A DNA stretch of 64,000 nucleotides from Alphaproteobacteria bacterium (GTDB lineage: Bacteria > Pseudomonadota > Alphaproteobacteria > SHVV01), in assembly GCA_965261735.1 (NCBI GenBank), contig OZ253470.1:160001-224000 (forward strand), written 5' to 3'. The notes beneath the pieces were generated by a model, which saw only the letters and a list, made by a program, of their open reading frames with translations, searched no databases and was not told where the DNA came from. Both the position numbers and the translations under genes were made by a program. The first letter of the stretch is position 1. Each line of letters starts with the position of its first letter. Shown here one piece after another: positions 5,029 through 60,253 of this stretch.

Positions 5029-6094
5029 CGCCTGATCCGCCATTCCATGAATTTTGCGTCATGGAAGGATCGAAAACATGTGGCCAAGGCGCTCAGGGAC
5101 GTATACCGGGCCAAGGACGCCGATGCCGGCCTGGCGGCGCTGGATGCCTTCGAGGCCGGCCCCTGGGGCGAGAAATATCCGGCCATCGCACAGAGCTGGC
5201 GGCGCAACTGGGAACACGTCTCGCCCTTCTTTGTCTTCCCCGAGGCGGTACGCAGGATTGTCTACACCACAAACGCCATCGAGTCGCTCAACGCCAAGAT
5301 CCGGCGCGCTGTCCGCACCCGCGGCCACTTCCCCAGTGACGAGGCCGCCTCGAAGTTGTTATATCTCGTTCTCGATCATGCGGCCGAGACGTGGAAACGT
5401 CCGCCGCGGGAATGGTTCGAGGCCAAAACACAGTTCGCCGTCATCTTCGGCGAAAGGTTCGTCAATGTCTGACAAAACGGCCCGAGCACAAATCTTCTGA
5501 CACTCCCCGGCGCTACGGTCGAGCACGACGGCGAGCCGAACGCGTCCGGCATAGCGTCCGTCTTTCCGGTTGTCGAGCTTGGTGCCCGGCTTTCGATGAC
5601 GCACCTCGATGGCACAGGAGACGGGAACCTTGTGGTGAACACCACGGCCTTCCCCACGCGTTCGCCCGCCAACCCAGGTTTCGTCCACCTCAACATGGTT
5701 CTTGGGCTGTCCACCGATCCTGTCTTGGTTGGGCCGCACCATGCCCGAGCGGAGCTTGTGGAGAATTTGAAAGGCCGTCTCGTAGCGCGAAAGACCAAGT
5801 TGCCGCTGAAACTGCACGGCGGACATGCCGGGCGTCTGACTGGCGACCAGATAAGCGGCCCAGAACCAGACGTTCAGCGGAGTGTGGCTACGCTCCATCA
5901 CTGTTCCCACCGTCAGCCCGGTGTTCTGGCGGCACTTGCGGCAGCGCAGGACGCCAGGGCGGTTTTCAAAGTGGAACGGCTCTCCCGCCGTGCCGCAGTG
6001 CGGGCAGGCAAAGCCGTCTCCCCAGCGGGCTTTCTCCAGGTAGGCGGCGCAGGCCGCATCATCGGGGAAAAGTCGCTGGAACTCGGGTAGCGAA

Positions 6095-7528: not shown

Positions 7529-7654
7529 GTAGCGAATGCGGGAATGGGAGATCGGCGCGGTCGAGAACATCCATGGCGCGCTCCCCTATATCCGGTTTGC
7601 GCCCATTCTAGCCCTAGTGGGTGTGGGTGTAAACCGGATAAGCAAGGATCGACG

Positions 7655-9671: not shown

Positions 9672-10847
9672 ATGAAGATCGTTACCGAGAGCGCGGAATT
9701 GGCCGCGCTATGCCCGGCATTCGCGGCCTCGCCCTACGTCGCCGTCGACACCGAGTTCATGCGCGAGACGACGTATTGGCCCAAGCTCTGCTTCGTACAG
9801 CTCGCCGCGGGGGGCCAGACGGCGGCCATCGATACGCTCGCCGAGGGTCTTGTTCTGGACCCGCTCTTCGACCTGATGCGTGCCACAGAGACGCTCAAGG
9901 TCTTTCATGCCGGGCGCCAGGACCTCGAGATTTTCCATCACCTGGGAGGCGTCATTCCGACGCCCCTGTTCGACACCCAGGTCGCGGCGATGGTCTGCGG
10001 GTTCGGCGACTCGGTGGCTTATGATCGGCTCGTCGCCAAGCTCGTTGGCGCGCGCATCGACAAGACCTCGCGCTACTCCGACTGGTCGCGACGCCCGCTC
10101 ACCGAGCGGCAGGTCCGCTATGCGCTCGACGACGTCGTCCATCTCGGCGCCGTTTATGAGACGCTCGCCCGGCAGCTCGAGTCCTCGGGCCGGACACGAT
10201 GGCTCGATGAGGAGATGGCCGTGCTGAGCGATCCCGCGACCTACGAGGCCCCGCCCGACGCCGCGTGGCGGCGCATCAAGGCGCGCAACACGAGCCCGCG
10301 CTTCCTTGCCGTGCTGCGCGAGGTCGCGGCATGGCGCGAGATCGAGGCGCAGACTCGCGACGTCCCGCGCAACCGAGTCCTGCGCGACGAGGCCTTGCTT
10401 GAGATTGCCGGCACGGTCCCGCGGACGAATGATGCGCTCGAACGCATCCGCGCGGTGCCGGGCCGTTTCGCCGCCGGCGAGCGGGCCAAGCCCCTGCTCG
10501 CCGCGATCGCGCGCGGCGCCGAGGCAACCGACGAGGAGCTCCCCCACTCCGAGCGCAGGCCCGCGCTTCCCGGGGGCCTCGGTCCCCTCGTCGATCTCCT
10601 CAAGGTGTTGCTCAAGACCAAGTGCGAGGCTAACGACGTTGCCCAGAAGTTGGTCGCGAACACCGCCGACCTCGAGCGCATCGCCGCCGAGGCCCACGCC
10701 GACGTGCCGGCGCTTAAGGGCTGGCGGAACGAGCTATTCGGGCGCGACGCCCTGGCGCTGAAGGCCGGCCGGCTCGCGTTGGCCGCCGACCGCCGCGGTG
10801 TGCGGCTCGTCACCGTCGACGGAGCGGGCCGCGCGCCCAAAAACTAG
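9672..10847 (+). CDS. rnd: Ribonuclease D
   Basis: [34 protein letters not shown] domain. Confidence 0.96.
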
Positions 10848-12384: not shown

Positions 12385-14538
12385 CTACGGGTTGTGGTGG
12401 ACGAGCTCCGGCCCCGAGGCAGCCCTCAGAGCCTTTCCCCGCCCCGACAGGCTCGGGTTGGTCATAAAGAACTCATACGCGCTAAAGGCGTCGGCCCCTT
12501 GCGGCGCGCGCCGGTAGGTGCCGTCGGACCGTAGCTGCCAAGACTGTGTTTCATCCCTGAGATTACACACCATTATTTGGTCGAGGACCTGCTCGTGCAC
12601 CGTCGGGTTGGCGATCGGAACCATTGTCTCGACGCGCCAGTCGAAATTGCGCGGCATCCAGTCGGCCGAGGTGATGTAGACCTTGGCGTCGGGTGAGGGC
12701 AGGCCGTGGCCGGCGCCGAAGCATAGGATGCGGGAATGTTCGAGAAACCGGCCGACCATGCTTTTGATGCGGATGTTTTCCGATAGACCCGGCACGCCGG
12801 CGCGCAGGCAGCAGATACCGCGCACGACCAGATCCACCGACACACCCGCCTGCGAGGCGCGGTACAGCGCATCGATGGCCTCGGGGTCGACGAGGGCATT
12901 CATTTTCGCCCAGACCGCGGCCGGGCGGCCGGCGCGCGCGTGGGCGATCTCGTCGCCGATCAGCCCGAGGACCGTGGCGCGCAGGTCGCTCGGTGAAACC
13001 ACGAGCGATTCGTAGCGCTCGGGCTCGGCGTAGCCGGTGAGGTAGTTGAACAGGCGCATGGCGTCACGGCCCAGCGCCGAATCGGCCGTGAAGAAAGAAA
13101 GGTCGGTATAGATCTTGGCGGTGACCGGGTGGTAGTTCCCGGTGCCGAAGTGGACGTAGGAGCGTACCGCGTTGCCCTCGCGCCGGACCACGAGCGAGAC
13201 TTTGGCATGGGTCTTGAGGTTCATGAAGCCGTAGACCACCTGCACGCCCGAGCGTTCCATGTCCCGGGCCCAGCGGATGTTGGCTTCCTCGTCGAAGCGC
13301 GCCTTGAGCTCGACCAGCGCGGTCACCGACTTGCCTGCGTCGGCGGCTGCGATCAGCGCCCTCACGATGGGCGAATCCTCGCTCGTGCGATAGAGCGTCT
13401 GCTTGATCGCCAGCACGTCCGGATCGGCCGCGGCCTGACGAATGAACTGCACCACGACGTCGAAACTCTCGTAGGGGTGATGGACGATAATGTCCTTGTT
13501 GCGAATCGCCGCCAGGCAGTCGCCGCCAAAATCGCGAATGCGCTCCGGGAAGCGCGGCGGATAGGGCGTGAATTTGAGGTCCGGGCGGTCGTCGACGAGG
13601 AGCTGATCGGTGTCGACGAGACCGACGATGCCGTCGACGACGACGATCATCGAGTCGGCGACCTCGAGTCGCTCGGCGACAAAGCGCAGCAGGTCCTGGG
13701 GCATCGCCGCGTCGACCTTGAGGCGAATGACGCGCCCGAGGCGGCGGCGCTTGAGCGCGGATTCGAAGAACCGCACCAGGTCGTCGGCCTCTTCCTCGAC
13801 CTCGATGTCGCTATCGCGCAGGACACGGAATTGTCCGCGGCCGACGACCTCGTACCCGGGGAACAGACGGTCGACGAACAGCTCGATCGTGTCCTCAACG
13901 GACAGAAATCGAATACGCTCGCCGGGGAGGCGCACGAATCTATCGACCTGCGGCGGCAGCCGGAGCAGCGCGTTCATCGCCCGCCCGTCGGCGTGGCGGC
14001 GCAGCTCGAGGACGAGCCCGGAGCCGAGATTGGGTATGAAGGGGAACGGGTGTGCCGGGTCTACGGCAATCGGCGTCAACACCGGGAAGATGTGCTCGAG
14101 AAACCGGTTCTCAAGCCATGCCCGCTCGCTCTTCGTCACCTCCTCGACGCCGATCACGGCGATGCCCGCCGCACGTAACTCGCGCCGCACCGTGCGCCAG
14201 GTATCTTGCTGCCGTTTCGTCAGCGCTTTCGCCCCCTCGACAACGCGGTCGAGTTGCTGCGCGGGCGAGAGCCCGTCCTGGCTCACTTCCTCGATGCCCG
14301 CCATCACCTGTTGGCGCAGGCCGGCGACCCGCACCATGTAGAACTCGTCGAGGTTGAACGCCGAAATCGACAGAAATCGGACGCGCTCAAGCAGCGGGTG
14401 GGCCGTGTTATCGGCCTCCTCGAGGACACGCTCGTTGAACGACAGCCAGGACAGCTCGCGGTTGATGAACCGGCGGCTGTCGGTAATGCCGATGGTCTCG
14501 ACTGCCGACCCCCGGGCGGGGTCAGGAGTGTTCACCAC
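12385..14538 (-). CDS. ppk1: Polyphosphate kinase 1
   Basis: [31 protein letters not shown]. Confidence 0.98.
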
Positions 14539-14649
14539 GGGTTCCCTCGTTCATACACCGTTCGGCAGCGGTCGCGCCGGCGCACGCTACAACAGAACGA
14601 AACCAGTGTCATGACGCGGCGCCGGCGGGTACTGGCCTAATTCGGCCAC

Positions 14650-15263
14650 TCATGGCTGACCGCCCTTGATTACCGTGAACCGTCCGACCTTCCGACCTTG
14701 CGGCTCAGGCAGCGTGCCATCGAGCGCCGCGTCCAACAACTCGCCAATCGTCCAGATATGGTCGGTCACGTCCAAGGCCATTGCGGGCGTGATCCGCCAG
14801 GGCCTGGTGGACCCGTCAGAGATTGTAGTGCGCCACGTAGAGGCTCACGGCTGCCGCGTGGTTCTCTAGCTTCTTGGAGAAGCCGTTGCTGAGGCGGGCA
14901 AAACGCTTCTGGCCCATGCGGAGGGTGAGATTCTGGCGCTCGACGTAGGACGTTGCAATGTGCCGGGGGAAGCCGACTACCCGCTGGCGGCTTACGGCTA
15001 CTACTACGGCTGGGGAGTAGCGTCGGGCTGCCTCTAGGCCGGGGTCTGTCGCGTAGTGCTTTTCGATGGTGCCGAACCGGCAATCGTTTCCGAATGCCCG
15101 CTCGACAGCATCCGGATAGGCTGAGAACGCATCGGAGGAAATCTCTGGCGCGCCCAGCACCCGGTCCCGCAGGTCCGCCAGGAAGGCACGGGTGTTCTCG
15201 CCGTTCCGCTTGCCGACGCGGTAGCTCACGATGGCCTTCGCGCTATCGGCCAGGGCAATGAAA
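14650..15263 (-). pseudogene. IS1-like transposase, C-terminal half
   Basis: ISSDAF, TSYVERQNLTLRM, FSKKLENH, TPAMA motifs; TGA at 14816-14818 and a +1 frameshift just downstream. Confidence 0.85.
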
Positions 15264-15348
15264 CCCGCATTTCCCAGGTAGCTCATCTATTTGATGCCGT
15301 TTCCACTTGATTTTGTTATAAGAATCATAGGTTTAGGCTAGATAGAGG

Positions 15349-16705
15349 GTGGATCGCATGCGGAACCCGGAGGGTGAATCGGATCGGCGGCCTCTGCGGC
15401 CTTGTTTAGACCGTCGCCTGAAGCTGGAGTTCCACGGTTCACGGGTCACGTCGGACGCCGGTCTGCTCGCCTATCGGGAACTCGATGATATCCTTGGCCT
15501 CACCGCCCTGGCGAGCAATGTCCTGGCTGACAGCCGGACGGGCAAGAACGGCTGGCACGACGTTGTCGGACTGCTGCGTCAGTCCGTCTATGGACGTCTC
15601 GCCGGATATGAGGACGTGAACGACGCCGACCGGTTGGGGCGCGATCCTGCGATGCGGTGGATCGTCGGCGGAAAGGCCGTCGAGCGCGGCGGCGCATCGA
15701 CCAGCCAGATGAGCCGCTTGGAGACCGAGTTGCTGTCCAAGGACGAGAACCTCACCTCCCTTGCCGACCTGTCCGGGCTTTGGATCGACCGGGTTCACGA
15801 CCGCCGGCCGCCGGTCAAGATCATTCTCGATATGGATTCCAGCGTCAGCCCGACCTACGGTGACCAGGAGGGCACGGCCTACAACGGTCACTTTGGCTGC
15901 ACCTGTTATCATCCCCTGTTCCTGTTCAATCAGTTTGGCGACCTGGAGCGATGTCGCCTACGTCCCGGCAACGTTCACAGTGCCGATGGATGGCGCGACG
16001 TTCTGGAGCCGGTGGTAGAACGCTACAAGGCCACGAAGGTTCGGCTCTATTTTCGCGGTGACGCGGCGTTTGCCTCGCCGGACATTTACGAATACCTCGA
16101 AGCCGAGGGCTTTCTGTATGCGATCCGCCTTCCGGCCGACACGGTTCTCCAGGAAAGCATCGCCCACCTGTTGACCCGGCCCGTTGGTCGGCCGCCCAAC
16201 CATGTTCGCCGCTACTACACCAACTTCAGCTATCAGGCCGGTTCGTGGAACAAGAAACGTCGTGTGGTTGCCAAGGTCGAATGGCATCCCGGCGAACTGT
16301 ACCCCCGCGTCGGCTTCATCGTCACCAACCTGAGTCGTCCTGCCGAGCGGGTGGTTGCGTTCTACAATCAGCGCGGCACCGCCGAGCAATGGATCAAGGA
16401 AGGCAAGAACGCCATCAAGTGGACGCTTGTCCTGCCGCAAGTTCGACCACAATGCCGTCCGGCTCCAGCTGCATGCACTGGCCTATAACCTCGGCAACTT
16501 CATGCGCACCCTGGCGTTGCCCGATTCCGTGGAGCAGTGGTCGCTGACGACGCTGCGGGAGAAGCTGATCAAGATCGGCGCGAAGATCGTCCGCCACGGC
16601 CGCTACGTCATCTTCCAGATGGCCGAGGTCGCCATCCCGAGAGACCTCTTCGCCGACATCCTGCGCCGCATCGACCGGCTCAGACCGACGCGCACTCCGG
16701 CATGA
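15349..16705 (+). pseudogene. IS1380 transposase, frameshifted near 16425
   Basis: VTSDAGLL, LDMDSS, CYHPLF, RGDAAF, YNQRGTAEQWIKEGK; AIKWT/RLSCR split across two frames. Confidence 0.9.
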
Positions 16706-16849
16706 CCGACGGCATCCCGCTCATCCACGCAGACGACAGGATCGGTGCATCTGGTATGCAGCAGAAGAGTCCGTTTGCCCCGCCACCCCCGCCAATTGTC
16801 CCTCCATCCGATGGAATCGGATTACAGGCGGCCGCAGGACGCAAGCCAG

Positions 16850-16878
16850 TTGCAATGCGAGCGGTTCCGAGTCACGAT
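16850..16878 (+). promoter_or_regulatory. Putative outward sigma-70 promoter of IS1380
   Basis: TTGCAA-17 bp-CACGAT, about 40 bp upstream of the cargo gene. Confidence 0.45.
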
Positions 16879-16913
16879 CAACTCGCCGATGAGGTGTCCG
16901 AAGGAGCGGTTGG

Positions 16914-17669
16914 GTGAGCATGTATGAGAAGCTTTCTGAAAGACTGATGGCTGCTCTGCATATGGCGGTACCGCCGGTGGCGGTCAGTTTTCCAAGCCGA
17001 GCACCGTCGGCGATGGCCAGGCCGGCAACCCCGGTAGCGGCTGGCTGTGCATTCTGGGAGCAAGGGGCAAATCGAGCGGTAACTACTACCGCGAGTGACC
17101 ATCGCTTCTGCTCTATCGGGATACACACCCATAACATCGCTGGAGCACCCGACTCCCAAGCGGGCGAACTGCAGGATGCGCTCGCGGCCATGCAGGGCTT
17201 GGACTATGTGCGGCCCGACGAGGTTGCAGCCCTTCCGGTTATGAAGAATTCGGTATCCTATGTTGTCTATTGCCCCTTGGGAGAGATGGCAGAGCAACCC
17301 CAGGTAGTGCTGCTGTTTGCACATTCCGCCCAGGGCTTGGTGTTATCCGAGGCATTGGCGCGGGTGGACGGCGCCGTGCCAATCGCCATGGGGAGACCTG
17401 CCTGTGCACTGATTCCCCAGGTTGCAAACAGTGCACGCTCGGCCGCGAGCTTGGGCTGCTGCGGCGCCCGAGCGTATCTCGACGTACTGAGTGATGATGT
17501 GGCAATGTGGGGTCTGCATGGTGGAAAGATCGAGCAGTATGTCTCGGAGATCGAGACCCTAGCCAAGGCTAACGCGATACTCACTCAGTTCCACGAACGA
17601 CGGCGCAGCGACATAGAGTCAGGCGAGTTGCCAAGTGTCGCCGAGTCCTTGTCCCGCCTGCCCGGTTAG
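16914..17669 (+). CDS. DUF169-family Cys-containing protein (cargo)
   Basis: PPVAVSF, GCAFW, DHRFCSIG, GRPACALIP, SLGCCGAR; start 16914 (GTG) or 16920 (ATG). Confidence 0.75.
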   Translation: MSMYEKLSERLMAALHMAVPPVAVSFPSRAPSAMARPATPVAAGCAFWEQGANRAVTTTASDHRFCSIGIHTHNIAGAPDSQAGELQDALAAMQGLDYVRPDEVAALPVMKNSVSYVVYCPLGEMAEQPQVVLLFAHSAQGLVLSEALARVDGAVPIAMGRPACALIPQVANSARSAASLGCCGARAYLDVLSDDVAMWGLHGGKIEQYVSEIETLAKANAILTQFHERRRSDIESGELPSVAESLSRLPG

Positions 17670-17705
17670 CCTCTTCTAAAGCGGATACGCGAGGCCATCC
17701 CCGTT

Positions 17706-17989
17706 ATGAAGGTTGTCCTGATCAACCCGTATGAGCTGGGCCGCCAACCCTTCGCCCTCGCGCAGCCGGCAGCGTGGCTCAAGGAAGCGGGTCACCAGGT
17801 GTGCTGCCTCGAGCTGTCCTTGCAGCAGTTAGACGATGTTGCACTGGGCCATGCCGAGCTTGTTGCCGTATACGTAGGCATGCATACAGCAGCTCGTATT
17901 GCCGCGGAGGCTTTGCCCCGCATCCGCGCGCTTGCGCCCCAGGCGCACGTTAGCGTCTACGGTCTATATGCTCCGATGAACGATGGTCT
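17706..17989 (+). pseudogene. N-terminal B12-binding fragment of a radical SAM protein (resembles CUAEP/CCAEP-tail family), cut by IS3
   Basis: MKVVLINPYELGRQPFALAQPAAWL...MHTAARIA...YGLYAPMN, then runs into the IS3 left end. Confidence 0.7.
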
Positions 17990-18215
17990 TGGAGTGACCC
18001 CCTAAAAGTGGTCCAGATTTGTTAAGAGAGTTTGGCGCATTTTGCCCCCTCGAAAGGAGGACAAAATGAGCCGTAAACGCTACACCCCAGAACAGATTAT
18101 CAGCATGTTGCGCGAAGCCGAGGTGGCCTTGGCGCAGGGCCAGTCCGTTGGTCAAGCTTGTCGCACGCTCGGCGTATCGGAGCAGAGTTACTATCGCTAG
18201 CGCAAGGAATATGGC
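17990..18215 (+). mobile_element. IS3-family (IS407-like) left-end fragment
   Basis: TG-starting IR TGGAGTGACCCCCTAAAAGTGGTCCA, RBS AGGAGG, orfA from 18066 MSRKRYTPEQII...SEQSYYR*RKEYG, truncated. Confidence 0.85.
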
Positions 18216-18493
18216 TGAAAACGTACTGGTCGCCGACGTTCGCGCCGTCCTCTGGCTTCACCATGCGCTGCTTCTTGGCGACGTAGGACCAGGCTTCGTC
18301 TAGTTCGATCCGGTTGACGTGAAGATCGCGCATCATCGCGTCATGGAGCTTGGCGCAACCAGCGCCGACGCTCGCGCCAAGTCGCATGATGGTGCCCCGG
18401 TTCGCGCCCGTCAGGCGCTCGGTGGCGCGAATGGAGCATCCCTCAGATAGTGCGGCGATTGCCGCCACCTGGCAGTCAAAAGGGAGAACGTTC
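18216..18493 (-). pseudogene. IS1-like transposase, N-terminal half
   Basis: (M)NVLPFDCQVAAIAALSEGCSIRATERLTG HTH and IELDEAWSYV; ATG broken by IS1595. Confidence 0.85.
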
Positions 18494-19066
18494 CTTGCCT
18501 ATCCGGTTTACACCCACACCCACTAGGGCTAGAATGGGCGCAACCCGGATATAGGGGAGCGCGCCATGGATGTTCTCGACCGCGCCGATCTCCCATTCCC
18601 GCATTCGCTACCCGAGTTCCAGCGACTTTTCCCCGATGATGCGGCCTGCGCCGCCTACCTGGAGAAAGCCCGCTGGGGAGACGGCTTTGCCTGCCCGCAC
18701 TGCGGCACGGCGGGAGAGCCGTTCCACTTTGAAAACCGCCCTGGCGTCCTGCGCTGCCGCAAGTGCCGCCAGAACACCGGGCTGACGGTGGGAACAGTGA
18801 TGGAGCGTAGCCACACTCCGCTGAACGTCTGGTTCTGGGCCGCTTATCTGGTCGCCAGTCAGACGCCCGGCATGTCCGCCGTGCAGTTTCAGCGGCAACT
18901 TGGTCTTTCGCGCTACGAGACGGCCTTTCAAATTCTCCACAAGCTCCGCTCGGGCATGGTGCGGCCCAACCAAGACAGGATCGGTGGACAGCCCAAGAAC
19001 CATGTTGAGGTGGACGAAACCTGGGTTGGCGGGCGAACGCGTGGGGAAGGCCGTGGTGTTCACCAC
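18494..19066 (+). mobile_element. IS1595 copy 2, left half only
   Basis: Near-identical to copy 3 up to GTGTTCACCAC, then unrelated sequence; no right IR or second TSD. Confidence 0.93.
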
Positions 19067-19378
19067 TATGATTCGCTTGAAGAAGAGCAAGAGGAGCCGA
19101 GTGAGGGGATGGTGGCTGTCACACCTGCGCTAAACAGCGATGAGCGTCTCCCTACTCAGGGAAAGGCACGGCACATACCGCTGTCAAGGCCGGGCGAGCG
19201 CACGCTGTTCTCATACAACTTCGAACCCTCGGGAAGCCTGAGGTTGGTCGTGGACGCGAGCGTTGATGTGGAGCAAGCGCTGCATGTCGTGGAGACGCTG
19301 GTCAAGGTGAAGCGAGAGGAACTCAAACTGATCAGTGAGCTAGCGGCTACACGACGGTCTGAGTCTGAACCAGAGTAG
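18566..19378 (+). CDS. Chimeric ORF: IS1595 transposase N-terminus fused in frame to C-terminus of an unknown passenger protein
   Basis: Junction ...GRGVHH/YDSLEEEQ... at 19066/19067; IS promoter TTTACA-17-TAGAAT (18507-18535) intact. Confidence 0.6.
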   Translation: MDVLDRADLPFPHSLPEFQRLFPDDAACAAYLEKARWGDGFACPHCGTAGEPFHFENRPGVLRCRKCRQNTGLTVGTVMERSHTPLNVWFWAAYLVASQTPGMSAVQFQRQLGLSRYETAFQILHKLRSGMVRPNQDRIGGQPKNHVEVDETWVGGRTRGEGRGVHHYDSLEEEQEEPSEGMVAVTPALNSDERLPTQGKARHIPLSRPGERTLFSYNFEPSGSLRLVVDASVDVEQALHVVETLVKVKREELKLISELAATRRSESEPE

Positions 19379-19459
19379 CCGCGCTTCAGGTGTCCCAACT
19401 TAGGACAAGCCACCCGGCTCTTCCTGGCAAACTAGGCCACCCAGCCTCAAACTCGGCCA

Positions 19460-20137
19460 CTACCCGCCGGCGGGGGACCGCGCAAGGACATCGCGGGCCA
19501 ACGCGATCGTGACGTTGCGGCCCTCGGCGAGCGCCGCGCCGTCGAGCGCTCCGACGCACGCGCGAGCCGCGGCGAACGAGCGTTCCATGCGCGTCACCAG
19601 GTAGCGGATGACGCCCTCGTCGACGCTGAGCTGGCGGTCATCGAACAGCTTGGCGAGAACCGCGGCGAGCAGCGCATCGTCGGGCGCGGCGAGGCCGACG
19701 GCGGGAAGCCCGCGCAGCCGCGAGGCTAGATCCGGGAGCGCCACGCGCCATCGCGCCGGCGCGGTGCGCGCGGTCATCAGCAACGAGCCACCGGCCTCGC
19801 GCAGCCGGTTGTAGAGGTGCAACAGCCCGGGCTCGCCGACGCCTCCATCGGCGCCCTCTAGCGCGACCGCCCTGTGCATCTCCGCTTCGGGCGCAAAAGC
19901 CATGCCGCCCAGGGCGCCTGCCGTCGCGACCCGTGCGCCGGAACGCGCCTGCCAGACGCGCACGAGGTGCGTCTTCCCACTAGCCGGCGGGCCGAACAGG
20001 ACGAGACCGTGGGCCGGCCAATCGGGCCAGCGGTCGAGCCACGCGACGGCAGCCTCGTTGCCGGGGGCGACGAAAAAATCTTCCTCCCCAAGGGCCGGCC
20101 GGTGGGGCAGGTCGAACGCCAGCTGCCGCGTCGTCAT
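19460..20137 (-). CDS. hdaA: DnaA regulatory inactivator HdaA
   Basis: QLAFDL clamp-binding motif, GPPASGKTHL, PDLASRL, MERSF; stop codon supplied by the IS end. Confidence 0.9.
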   Translation of the reverse strand: MTTRQLAFDLPHRPALGEEDFFVAPGNEAAVAWLDRWPDWPAHGLVLFGPPASGKTHLVRVWQARSGARVATAGALGGMAFAPEAEMHRAVALEGADGGVGEPGLLHLYNRLREAGGSLLMTARTAPARWRVALPDLASRLRGLPAVGLAAPDDALLAAVLAKLFDDRQLSVDEGVIRYLVTRMERSFAAARACVGALDGAALAEGRNVTIALARDVLARSPAGG

Positions 20138-58659: not shown

Positions 58660-59147
58660 TAGGTAGCGTGTCATCGAGTGAACCGGCTCGATGGCGGCTT
58701 CGGGCGCGCCGCGGCTCGAAGCGGACGGTGCATCGTCCTCACGCGCCGTCGCCACAACCTGGGCGATCTCGCCCGTACCGTTGGCGATCGCCGCGAGGTG
58801 CCAGTGCAACGGCTTCGTCTCGCGTGACGACATCTCACGCGCGCCGTCGATGCTGCGCGGTCCGTGCCCCGCGAGAACGGCCTCGACGGCGGCACGCGCT
58901 CCTCCGGCCACGGCTGGCGCCAGTTCCCAAAACGGGCGGCCGCGGATGTCGTCGAGCGAGCGGCCACATGCTTGGCCGCCGGCCGCGTTCCCCCAAGAAA
59001 CCCGCCCACGCCCGTCGAGAAGAACGACCGGAACGGGCAGCGCATCAAGGACGGCGGCGAGTTGTGGATCGACCTCGGACAAAGATACCCTCACTACCCC
59101 CGGCGGGTTGCCCTTTTCAACAAATGGGAGGCACAGGGAAAATGTAC

Positions 59148-60253
59148 CTTGCCTATCCGGTTTACACCCACACCCACTAGGGCTAGAATAGGCGCAAACC
59201 GGATATAGGGGAGCGCGCCATGGATGTTCTCGACCGCGCCGATCTCCCATTCCCGCATTCGCTACCCGAGTTCCAGCGACTTTTCCCCGATGATGCGGCC
59301 TGCGCCGCCTACCTGGAGAAAGCCCGCTGGGGAGACGGCTTTGCCTGCCCGCACTGCGGCACGGCGGGAGAGCCGTTCCACTTTGAAAACCGCCCTGGCG
59401 TCCTGCGCTGCCGCAAGTGCCGCCAAGAACACCGGGCTGACGGTGGGAACAGTGATGGAGCGTAGCCACACTCCGCTGAACGTCTGGTTCTGGGCCGCTT
59501 ATCTGGTCGCAAGTCAGACGCCCGGCATGTCCGCCGTGCAGTTTCAGCGGCAACTTGGTCTTTCGCGCTACGAGACGGCCTTTCAAATTCTCCACAAGCT
59601 CCGCTCGGGCATGGTGCGGCCCAACCAAGACAGGATCGGTGGACAGCCCAAGAACCATGTTGAGGTGGACGAAACCTGGGTTGGCGGGCGAACGCGTGGG
59701 GAAGGCCGTGGTGTTCACCACAAGGTCCCCGTCTCCTGTGCCATCGAGGTGCGTCATCGAAAGCCGGGCACCAAGCTCGACAACCGGAAAGACGGACGCT
59801 ATGCCGGACGCGTTCGGCTCGCCGTCGTGCTCGACCGTAGCGCCGAGTCGCTCTGTGGGTTCGTCGAGAGCACCGTCGCGCCGCGATCGCTGATCGTTAC
59901 TGACGATTGGAGCGGCTATGCTGGCCTCGGTAAGCGCGGCTATGAGCACTTCGCTGTTGCCGAGTGTGGTGATCCAGAGGTTGCCGAGCAATACCTGCCG
60001 ATCATCCATCTGGTTTTCGCCAACCTGAAGACGTGGCTGATCGGTATCCACCACGGCGTTAGCCACCAGCACCTACAAGCCTACCTCAACGAGTTCACCT
60101 TCCGCTTCAACAGGCGGTTCTACCCGTTCAACGCCTTCCGCTCATTGCTCGGCATCGCGGGCGACACCTCTGCTCCAACCTATGCCGAGCTTTACTCGGG
60201 AGAGTGGCGGCACCCTACATGTAGCGGTCATGGGCGTTAACCGGATAGGCAAG
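59148..60253 (+). mobile_element. IS1595 copy 3, full length (1106 bp)
   Basis: IRs CTTGCCTATCCGG / CCGGATAGGCAAG; TSD AAATGTAC (59140-59147, 60254-60261); promoter TTTACA-17-TAGAAT (59161-59189). Confidence 0.96.
59220..60240 (+). pseudogene. IS1595 transposase with +1 frameshift
   Basis: CGCCAAGAAC at about 59425 versus CGCCAGAAC in copies 1 and 2; Zn ribbon, VEVDE, TDDW, YLNEFTFRFNRR. Confidence 0.88.

Follow-up and report, generated by a model that had tools for sequence, protein, structure and literature searches.

An IS1380-family element, a DUF169 gene, and gene fragments as a probable ISEcp1-style one-ended transposition unit in an alphaproteobacterium

Insertion sequences (ISs) of the IS1380 family typically duplicate 4 to 5 bp of target DNA when they insert. 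The transposition units (TPUs) of one member, ISEcp1, normally keep an intact IS. In the portion of PMC6061673 that covers them, ISEcp1 units are bordered by 5-bp AT-rich repeats, use poorly matching alternative right inverted repeats (IRRs; e.g., IRR1), and have truncated tnp genes at their end. Passages of PMC3281130 describe transposable modules (TMos) of Paracoccus, in which a single IS1380-family element (ISPme1 or IS1247a) is joined to adjacent genomic DNA of various lengths; Table 2 of that paper lists IS1247 at 1672 bp with 5-bp repeats, and its reference list cites mobilization of the gene for haloacetate dehalogenase of Xanthobacter autotrophicus by IS1247. For Sphingobium herbicidovorans MH, an excerpt of PMC5737581 reports four copies, one of them longer, of an IS1380 element together with yfcG, gstB, and partial rutE. 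Here, we describe a segment within a 64,000-nucleotide stretch of an alphaproteobacterial contig (OZ253470.1, positions 160,001 to 224,000; hereafter, the window) in which an IS1380-family element is followed by DNA unrelated to it. We interpret the segment as an ISEcp1-style one-ended TPU, the structure called a TMo for ISPme1 and IS1247a, and we assign this interpretation a probability of roughly 0.85.

The segment is one insertion of 2,952 bp (window positions 15264-18215) bracketed by 5-bp TGAAA direct repeats (Table 1). It is composed of an IS1380-family IS, an intact DUF169 gene, a 5' fragment of a radical SAM gene, and the left end of an IS3-family element. The segment starts with the left inverted repeat (IRL) of the IS and ends in DNA unrelated to that IS, and the duplication encloses the whole, which is the arrangement that characterizes a TPU or TMo. 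On the left, homology with a comparison set of 77 related loci, the best of which is 85% identical to the window element at the protein level, begins at 15261-15264. On the right, homology of 93% to a complete IS3-family element (locus L001, 9455 to ~10741) spans 17990 to exactly 18215. Each boundary is thus supported independently by its own break in homology. The GC content is 0.61 in the IS, 0.60 in the cargo, and 0.54 in the IS3 piece, with 0.66 for the whole window. An initial annotation, made from the sequence alone, had proposed one-ended capture by an IS1380 element, with the AT-rich TGAAA repeats flanking the IS plus ~1.3 kb rather than the IS alone and with the unit ending inside an IS3 orfA. 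The repeats do sit exactly at both homology breaks, the identity to the L001 copy breaks off just where the annotation had placed the end, and every structural prediction of one-ended capture holds, from the start at the IRL and the end in the IS3 orfA to the duplication and the empty target site.

The target was an IS1-family transposase gene, now split in two. When aligned with the sibling protein P0001 (249 aa), its N-terminal fragment spans 18217-18468 and its C-terminal fragment 14819-15262, both on the minus strand, and a single P0001 residue, F65, is the last of the one and the first of the other. The codons across the insertion site are in frame (GTT TTC A/TT GCC, with the slash at the insertion point), and the siblings P0001, P0122, and P0125 read GDQYVFIALAD (GDQYVF-IALAD) across it without interruption. 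The in-frame upstream sequence of the window, NVLPFDCQVAAIAAL, agrees with the N termini of P0122 and P0125. From the shared F65 and the uninterrupted siblings, it follows that TGAAA is a genuine 5-bp duplication around one insertion, which disposes of the concern, raised in the initial annotation, that an intact IS1-like gene might reveal it to be something else. If the segment is taken out along with one repeat, the gene is back in frame and its residue series is exactly that of the intact siblings, and the empty target site is accordingly present, at the protein level, in P0001, P0122, and P0125. Its DNA around a single TGAAA would be expected to read ...GGCAATGAAAACGTACTGG.... No intact IS1-family homologue was found in the 77 fetched loci. 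Plasmid IS1-family homologues (42-43% identity) were set aside as proof of the empty site, as they established contiguity only to within 2 residues and were superseded by P0001.

Table 1. Features of the segment and of its target gene, in window coordinates
Feature	Position	Strand	Details
IS1-family transposase gene, C-terminal part	14816..15263	-	PF03400 + NF033558; 99% identical to P0001 residues 65-212
TGAAA, left copy of target-site duplication	15259..15263	.	abuts CCCGCATTTCCCAGG (15264-15278)
Left inverted repeat (IRL) CCCGCATTTCCCAGGT	15264..15279	+	aligns with IRLs of related loci
IS1380-family IS body without right terminus	15264..16899	+	79-81% nucleotide identity to L002-L011 over 15262-16642/16808
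IS1380-family transposase pseudogene	15349..16705	+	one base missing near 16426
43-nt deletion junction	16894..16899	+	GTCC microhomology at 16896-16899
Intact DUF169 gene, 251 aa	16914..17669	+	PF02596, E 8.9e-15
CUAEP/CCAEP-tail radical SAM gene, 5' fragment, 95 codons	17706..17989	+	NF040546 profile positions 1-91 of 468
IS3-family left end: IRL TGGAGTGACC... and 5' part of orfA (226 bp)	17990..18215	+	93% to L001; PF01527 HTH_Tnp_1
Surrogate right end GCGCAAGGAATATGGC	18200..18215	+	placed by homology break and duplication
TGAAA, right copy of target-site duplication	18216..18220	.	abuts CGCAAGGAATATGGC (18201-18215)
IS1-family transposase gene, N-terminal part	18216..18492	-	100% identical to P0001 residues 2-65

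The same evidence bears on the possibility that the TGAAA repeat is coincidental, the segment having arrived by homologous or illegitimate recombination or being an assembly chimera across repeats. The region is indeed rich in repeats, and the source of the relatives is long-read metagenome assembly, which can introduce indels and collapses. Yet TGAAA is found only 28 times on the + strand among 63,996 window positions, so that a match at a fixed position would arise by chance with a probability of ~4e-4, and a coincidental repeat sits poorly with an excision that restores the sibling reading frame. Furthermore, chimeric open reading frames (ORFs) that start in the IRL (MSYLGNAGFIALAD...) are represented by 7 distinct sequences in other assemblies (P0002, P0121, P0123, P0124, P0127-P0129), which shows that the left junction is not an assembly artifact and that the site is polymorphic. 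An ORF with the radical SAM/IS3 junction of the window type was recovered on 33 contigs. We therefore consider coincidence or chimerism exceedingly improbable.

The target gene carries a further lesion. It stops at a TGA (14816-14818) where siblings (P0121, P0125, and others) have a Cys, beyond which they continue (...HYNLCRVHQ...; ...CRVHQALADHARNGLG...) for ~40 further residues. This stop is a second inactivating change in the gene.

The IS in the segment is a defective member of the IS1380 family and not of another family. In two frames, its ORFs exceed the PF13701 cutoff of 34.7, residues 19-359 giving 347 bits and the C-terminal piece 93 bits; the NF033539 score of P0457, a sibling that belongs to the same 90% cluster, is 391 bits (cutoff, 180). 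The IRL is the same as the 16-mer of L074 and one base off that of L002. Aligned with the L002 transposase (456 aa), the pseudogene covers residues 4-363 in frame 2 and residues 364-435 in frame 3; at the point of the frameshift, it reads KWTLVLPQ, versus KWTRLSCRKF in the intact 449-455-aa siblings that are present in the protein collection. Because the truncated 376-aa form occurs in 3 sequence variants on 14 contigs, the frameshift is not a local sequencing error.

No proper right inverted repeat (IR) had been seen after the transposase in the initial annotation, and our IR searches of the window were likewise empty. In the whole window, there is no inverted-orientation 15-mer within 3 mismatches of the IRL, and when an IRR was sought 1500-1800 bp downstream of the IRL, the best 16-mer had 7 mismatches, compared with 2-5 in the relatives. 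Complete elements in the related loci are 1641-1666 bp long and have both IRs (IRL, CCCGCATT.CCCA.GT; IRR, such as ATATGGGGAATCCCGG). Of the IRs of ~15-16 bp that belong at both ends of a ~1.65-kb element, the window copy has the IRL only.

Sibling proteins reveal what happened to the other. Both P0406 and P0407 (336 aa) have their start in the IS, from which they run through ...QLADEVS-KWGIS-GNMLQSMT-VRRSGWVSMYEK... and on into DUF169. Window frame 1 accounts for their residues 1-66, up to 16899, and frame 3 for their residues 80-336, beginning at 16896; nothing in the window corresponds to residues 67-79 (KWGISGNMLQSMT). A further nine sibling ORFs have ...SKW[EGV][IF]S in common before they split into at least 6 different flanks. 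Because this KW..S end is shared up to the point where the flanks diverge, KWGIS marks the canonical right terminus, and its back-translation (AAR TGG GGN AT.) fits the IRR consensus. A 43-nt microhomology deletion took away the right IR together with ~21 nt of the original upstream flank of DUF169; the right IR has been deleted and is not merely unrecognizable. A degenerate IRR at 16896-16911, suggested by a first reading of alignment A1, was dropped once P0406 and P0407 showed a clean 43-nt deletion. The documentation of an IRR deletion through sibling proteins that read through the intact IRR is the new point of this analysis.

DUF169 is the only complete cargo gene. It has a GTG start with GGAG 8 nt upstream, and its product is 98% identical to P0276, a member of a cluster of 140 sequences. 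In P0403, DUF169 is preceded by unrelated sequence (...RANTG-NMLQSM...), a context that represents the IS-free state of the gene. The radical SAM fragment is 100% identical to the N terminus of the full-length protein P0159 (461 aa), which scores 589.7 bits against NF040546 (cutoff, 500) and ends in ...WYCCAEP.... With 95 of 461 codons, the fragment stops before the CKHLCRHC cysteine motif of the full-length protein. Radical SAM siblings without IS3 continue ...NDGL-FRSLGAK..., whereas the window reads ...NDGL-GVTP and a stop as it enters the IS3 IRL. The initial annotation had advised a search for the donor locus; intact donor genes exist, in the form of an IS-free DUF169 (P0403) and a full-length radical SAM gene (P0159), and L001 is a complete IS3. 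Neither DUF169 nor the radical SAM fragment had a match in the 77 related loci, and a plasmid search returned no near-identical DNA for 15200-18280 and no protein-level match to DUF169.

Two side observations concern the cargo. DUF169 is immediately followed by a CCAEP-tail radical SAM gene (window 16914-17989; P0159, P0276, and P0396), and the captured IS3 orfA fragment has a TAG at 18198-18200 where the L001 copy has TGG (Trp).

To place the segment among its relatives, we tabulated ends and duplications for 64 rows of related loci, with one copy counted twice where L007 and L008 overlap. A recognizable IRR was present in 48/64 rows, and 14 of these 48 had perfect 5-bp AT-rich duplications; L004, which has a more diverged IRR, has a perfect duplication as well, in addition to the 14. 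Together with the two copies of TGAAA in the window, these repeats conform to the duplication expected of the IS1380 family.

Relatives in one metagenome-assembled genome (MAG), CBDAPE, show three states. L004 is a canonical copy with the duplication GTTAA. L070 (5910-7824) comprises the IS and 255 bp ending in ...TTCAAA, with GTAAG on both sides. In L002 (5910-8301), the same 255-bp extension abuts TTAAG and internal IS3 DNA, and the unit reaches 469 bp (TTAAG plus 464 bp) into the IS3, for an extension of +727 bp, with TTGAA flanking it on both sides. The IS3 that the L002 unit enters belongs to the same IS3 species as the one in the window segment (93% identity). Both extended units, which are nested, successive one-ended captures, retain an intact IRR. 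We rejected the idea that the L070 boundary arose from an IS3 insertion in L002, since the counterpart of L002 position 7833 lies inside the IS3, at L001 10684, and the IS3 ends near 10741. Units of different length with independent duplications therefore occur at 85% amino-acid identity to the window element. The initial annotation would have been undercut by sibling copies that all shared one fixed right end; related copies instead differ, most ending at the canonical IRR and two forming longer nested units with their own duplications. As a separate observation, L003 (5910-8301) shares the full 2,392-bp unit with L002, and its flanks are unmatched (ACTAA versus ACGTC).

A Kaistiaceae MAG contains two inverted IS copies ~2 kb apart (L007, the same region as L008; 3242-4883 and 6910-8551). 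One of them has the duplication CTGAA and the other has none; the pair may be a composite transposon. Such pairs lend some plausibility to the view that the window segment is itself the remnant of a composite transposon, in which IS1380 copies once lay on either side of the cargo before the right-hand one was lost by deletion. That deletion would have had to end exactly at the duplication and leave no trace, however, and the right boundary lies inside the IS3 orfA, with homology ending at the duplication. Self-BLAST of 14600-19500 against the window returned IS1595-like repeats only and no further IS1380 copy anywhere in the 64 kb. We regard a composite origin as highly improbable.

Several points weigh against one-ended capture. 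First, the surrogate right end matches the reverse complement of the IRL at 7/16 positions, a score that 10% of window 16-mers equal, and it matches the L002 IRR at 6/16, as do 20% of window 16-mers. The initial annotation had counted a 7/15 terminal match to the expected right IR as a likeness; we rejected that likeness as being at chance level. The surrogate end thus lacks recognizable IRR similarity, and the choice of the site is left unexplained by its sequence. Second, 34/48 rows with both IRs are without a perfect duplication (L005, L010, L011, L015, L022-L024, L029-L035, and others), possibly because copies recombined with one another, extended units went unnoticed, or ends were set wrongly. 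Third, the window copy combines a broken transposase with a lost IRR, and the element itself therefore gives no sign of present activity; further movement would need a transposase supplied in trans and, again, a surrogate right end. Fourth, the empty site is demonstrated at the protein level only, and for siblings at 90% identity or more, right ends are known from translated ORFs alone, among which the varied radical SAM tails need not be alternative unit ends and could stem from frameshift errors or from insertion of other ISs. With respect to the first point, the alternative ends described in the relevant part of PMC6061673 are also weak, and chance-level similarity consequently does not exclude membership among ISEcp1-style units.

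The second point also lends itself to a rival account, in which an ordinary two-ended IS insertion was followed by rearrangements that put DUF169, radical SAM, and IS3 DNA between the IS and the right duplication. Flank-swapping recombination seems to occur, given the many rows with both IRs that lack matching duplications, and debris of the IS1, IS1595, IS3, and IS1380 families lies within 5 kb. But the right TGAAA adjoins internal IS3 orfA with no IRR beside it, and in P0406 and P0407 the IS and its IRR are found ~40 nt upstream of DUF169, so that the linkage of IS and DUF169 predates the insertion. A 1.3-kb insertion exactly between the IRR and the duplication, along with precise loss of the IRR, would amount to several coincidences. 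An origin by two-ended insertion is, in our judgment, very unlikely.

For one-ended capture, sibling sequences allow a history to be proposed. An IS1380-family IS would have inserted ~40 nt upstream of DUF169, itself followed by a CCAEP-tail radical SAM gene, and an IS3-family element would have inserted after codon 95 of the latter gene. The 43-nt microhomology deletion would have taken out the right IR of the IS1380 element. Transposase would have joined the IRL end and a site in the IS3 orfA, 1.3 kb past the IS, to TGAAA in the IS1-family gene, duplicating 5 bp, and a one-base deletion would have inactivated the transposase. The order of these last three events (deletion, transposition, and frameshift) is one that we infer. 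We see about even odds that the IRR was lost first, forcing use of a surrogate end, or that an IRR still in place was read through and decay came later. The extended L070 and L002 units show that such read-through does occur.

Multiplicity can be gauged from cluster sizes in the protein collection. Clusters contain 140 member sequences for DUF169, 143 for the full-length radical SAM protein, and 112 for the transposase. For comparison, there are 11 for an adjacent gene that served solely as a single-copy yardstick for cluster sizes. That gene is a 717-aa ORF (12385-14538, minus strand) adjoining the IS cluster, which we take, by eye from its sequence, to be polyphosphate kinase (ppk). The clusters of 140 and 143 are large and near-identical while the next DUF169 relative is at 73%, suggesting that DUF169 and the radical SAM gene are a recently spread gene pair. 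N-terminal radical SAM fragments acquire other tails after residues 77, 82, 89, and ~112, with at least 5 different tails, which suggests that many units with different right ends may exist among the siblings.

Prompted by the cluster counts, the junction found on 33 contigs, and the variety of fragment tails, we tentatively raise a further possibility, which we think doubtful. The frameshifted IS without an IRR could act as a non-autonomous launch pad at the left end, repeatedly mobilized in trans by intact sibling transposases, each move with a different downstream end, and so yield multiplied DUF169-radical SAM units of variable length. If this were true, spread of the unit could reflect selection for DUF169 dosage or for expression from the IS end.

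Other mobile DNA surrounds the segment. Repeats of an IS1595-family element, 97.6-100% identical, lie at 18481-19066, 59135-59721, 5632-6094, and 7529-7651 of the window. The copy beside the unit begins at 18481, where it overlaps the opening codons of the IS1-family gene, and includes an ORF (18566-19378) with a zinc ribbon and an NF033547 match.

The segment resembles ISEcp1 units that carry blaCTX-M, blaCMY-2, and similar genes, as far as the cited account describes them, in its single left IS, its weak surrogate right end, and the 5-bp AT-rich repeats around the whole, as well as in having the IS shortly upstream of the first cargo gene and a truncated transposase gene at the far end. Unlike those units, it carries a DUF169 gene and gene fragments and no resistance gene, and unlike ISEcp1, its IS has had its own IRR deleted and its transposase frameshifted. 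The ISEcp1 and window transposases are likened here through family profiles (PF13701, and NF033539 for sibling P0457), not by direct comparison. The Paracoccus TMos, in the passages that report them, likewise consist of a single IS1380-family element moving adjacent non-resistance DNA of varied length, a description that fits both the window segment and the nested L070 and L002 units. Those TMos were caught functionally on trap plasmids, whereas our unit is deduced from sequence. In the Sphingobium case, the excerpt also describes an IS1380-family element with neighboring genes, which there are metabolic and lie at several chromosomal sites; it is multicopy in one finished genome, in contrast to the one copy in the window, where multiplicity is gauged from protein-cluster counts. 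The segment shares with IS91 and ISCR elements the mobilization of variable lengths of DNA on one side by a single element. Those elements, as outlined in part of PMC5737581, have an HUH transposase, no IRs or target duplication, and oriIS and terIS; the window has a DDE transposase, an IRL, and a 5-bp duplication.

Non-resistance cargo of IS1380 elements in Alphaproteobacteria (Paracoccus, Xanthobacter, and Sphingobium) is thus already published, and an ISEcp1-style reading is itself not new. The initial annotation had presented metabolic cargo in an alphaproteobacterium as a novelty. Of this, "metabolic" is unproven, DUF169 having no known function and the radical SAM gene being a stub, and the claim of novelty falls to the published cases. 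The finding leaves the known mechanism of IS1380 one-ended transposition unchanged, and what it adds, a documented deletion of the IRR and nested units among relatives, is modest. For annotation, the locus carries a warning: an IR search cannot find the IS boundary here, and DUF169 and the radical SAM stub belong to the mobile unit as passengers and are not genes of the host. For the family, the segment offers a natural example of environmental IS1380 one-ended movement of non-resistance genes, with empty-site, donor-state, and defective-end evidence from one lineage, and microhomology deletion of 43 nt containing the right IR provides one concrete route by which such units may arise or be locked in.

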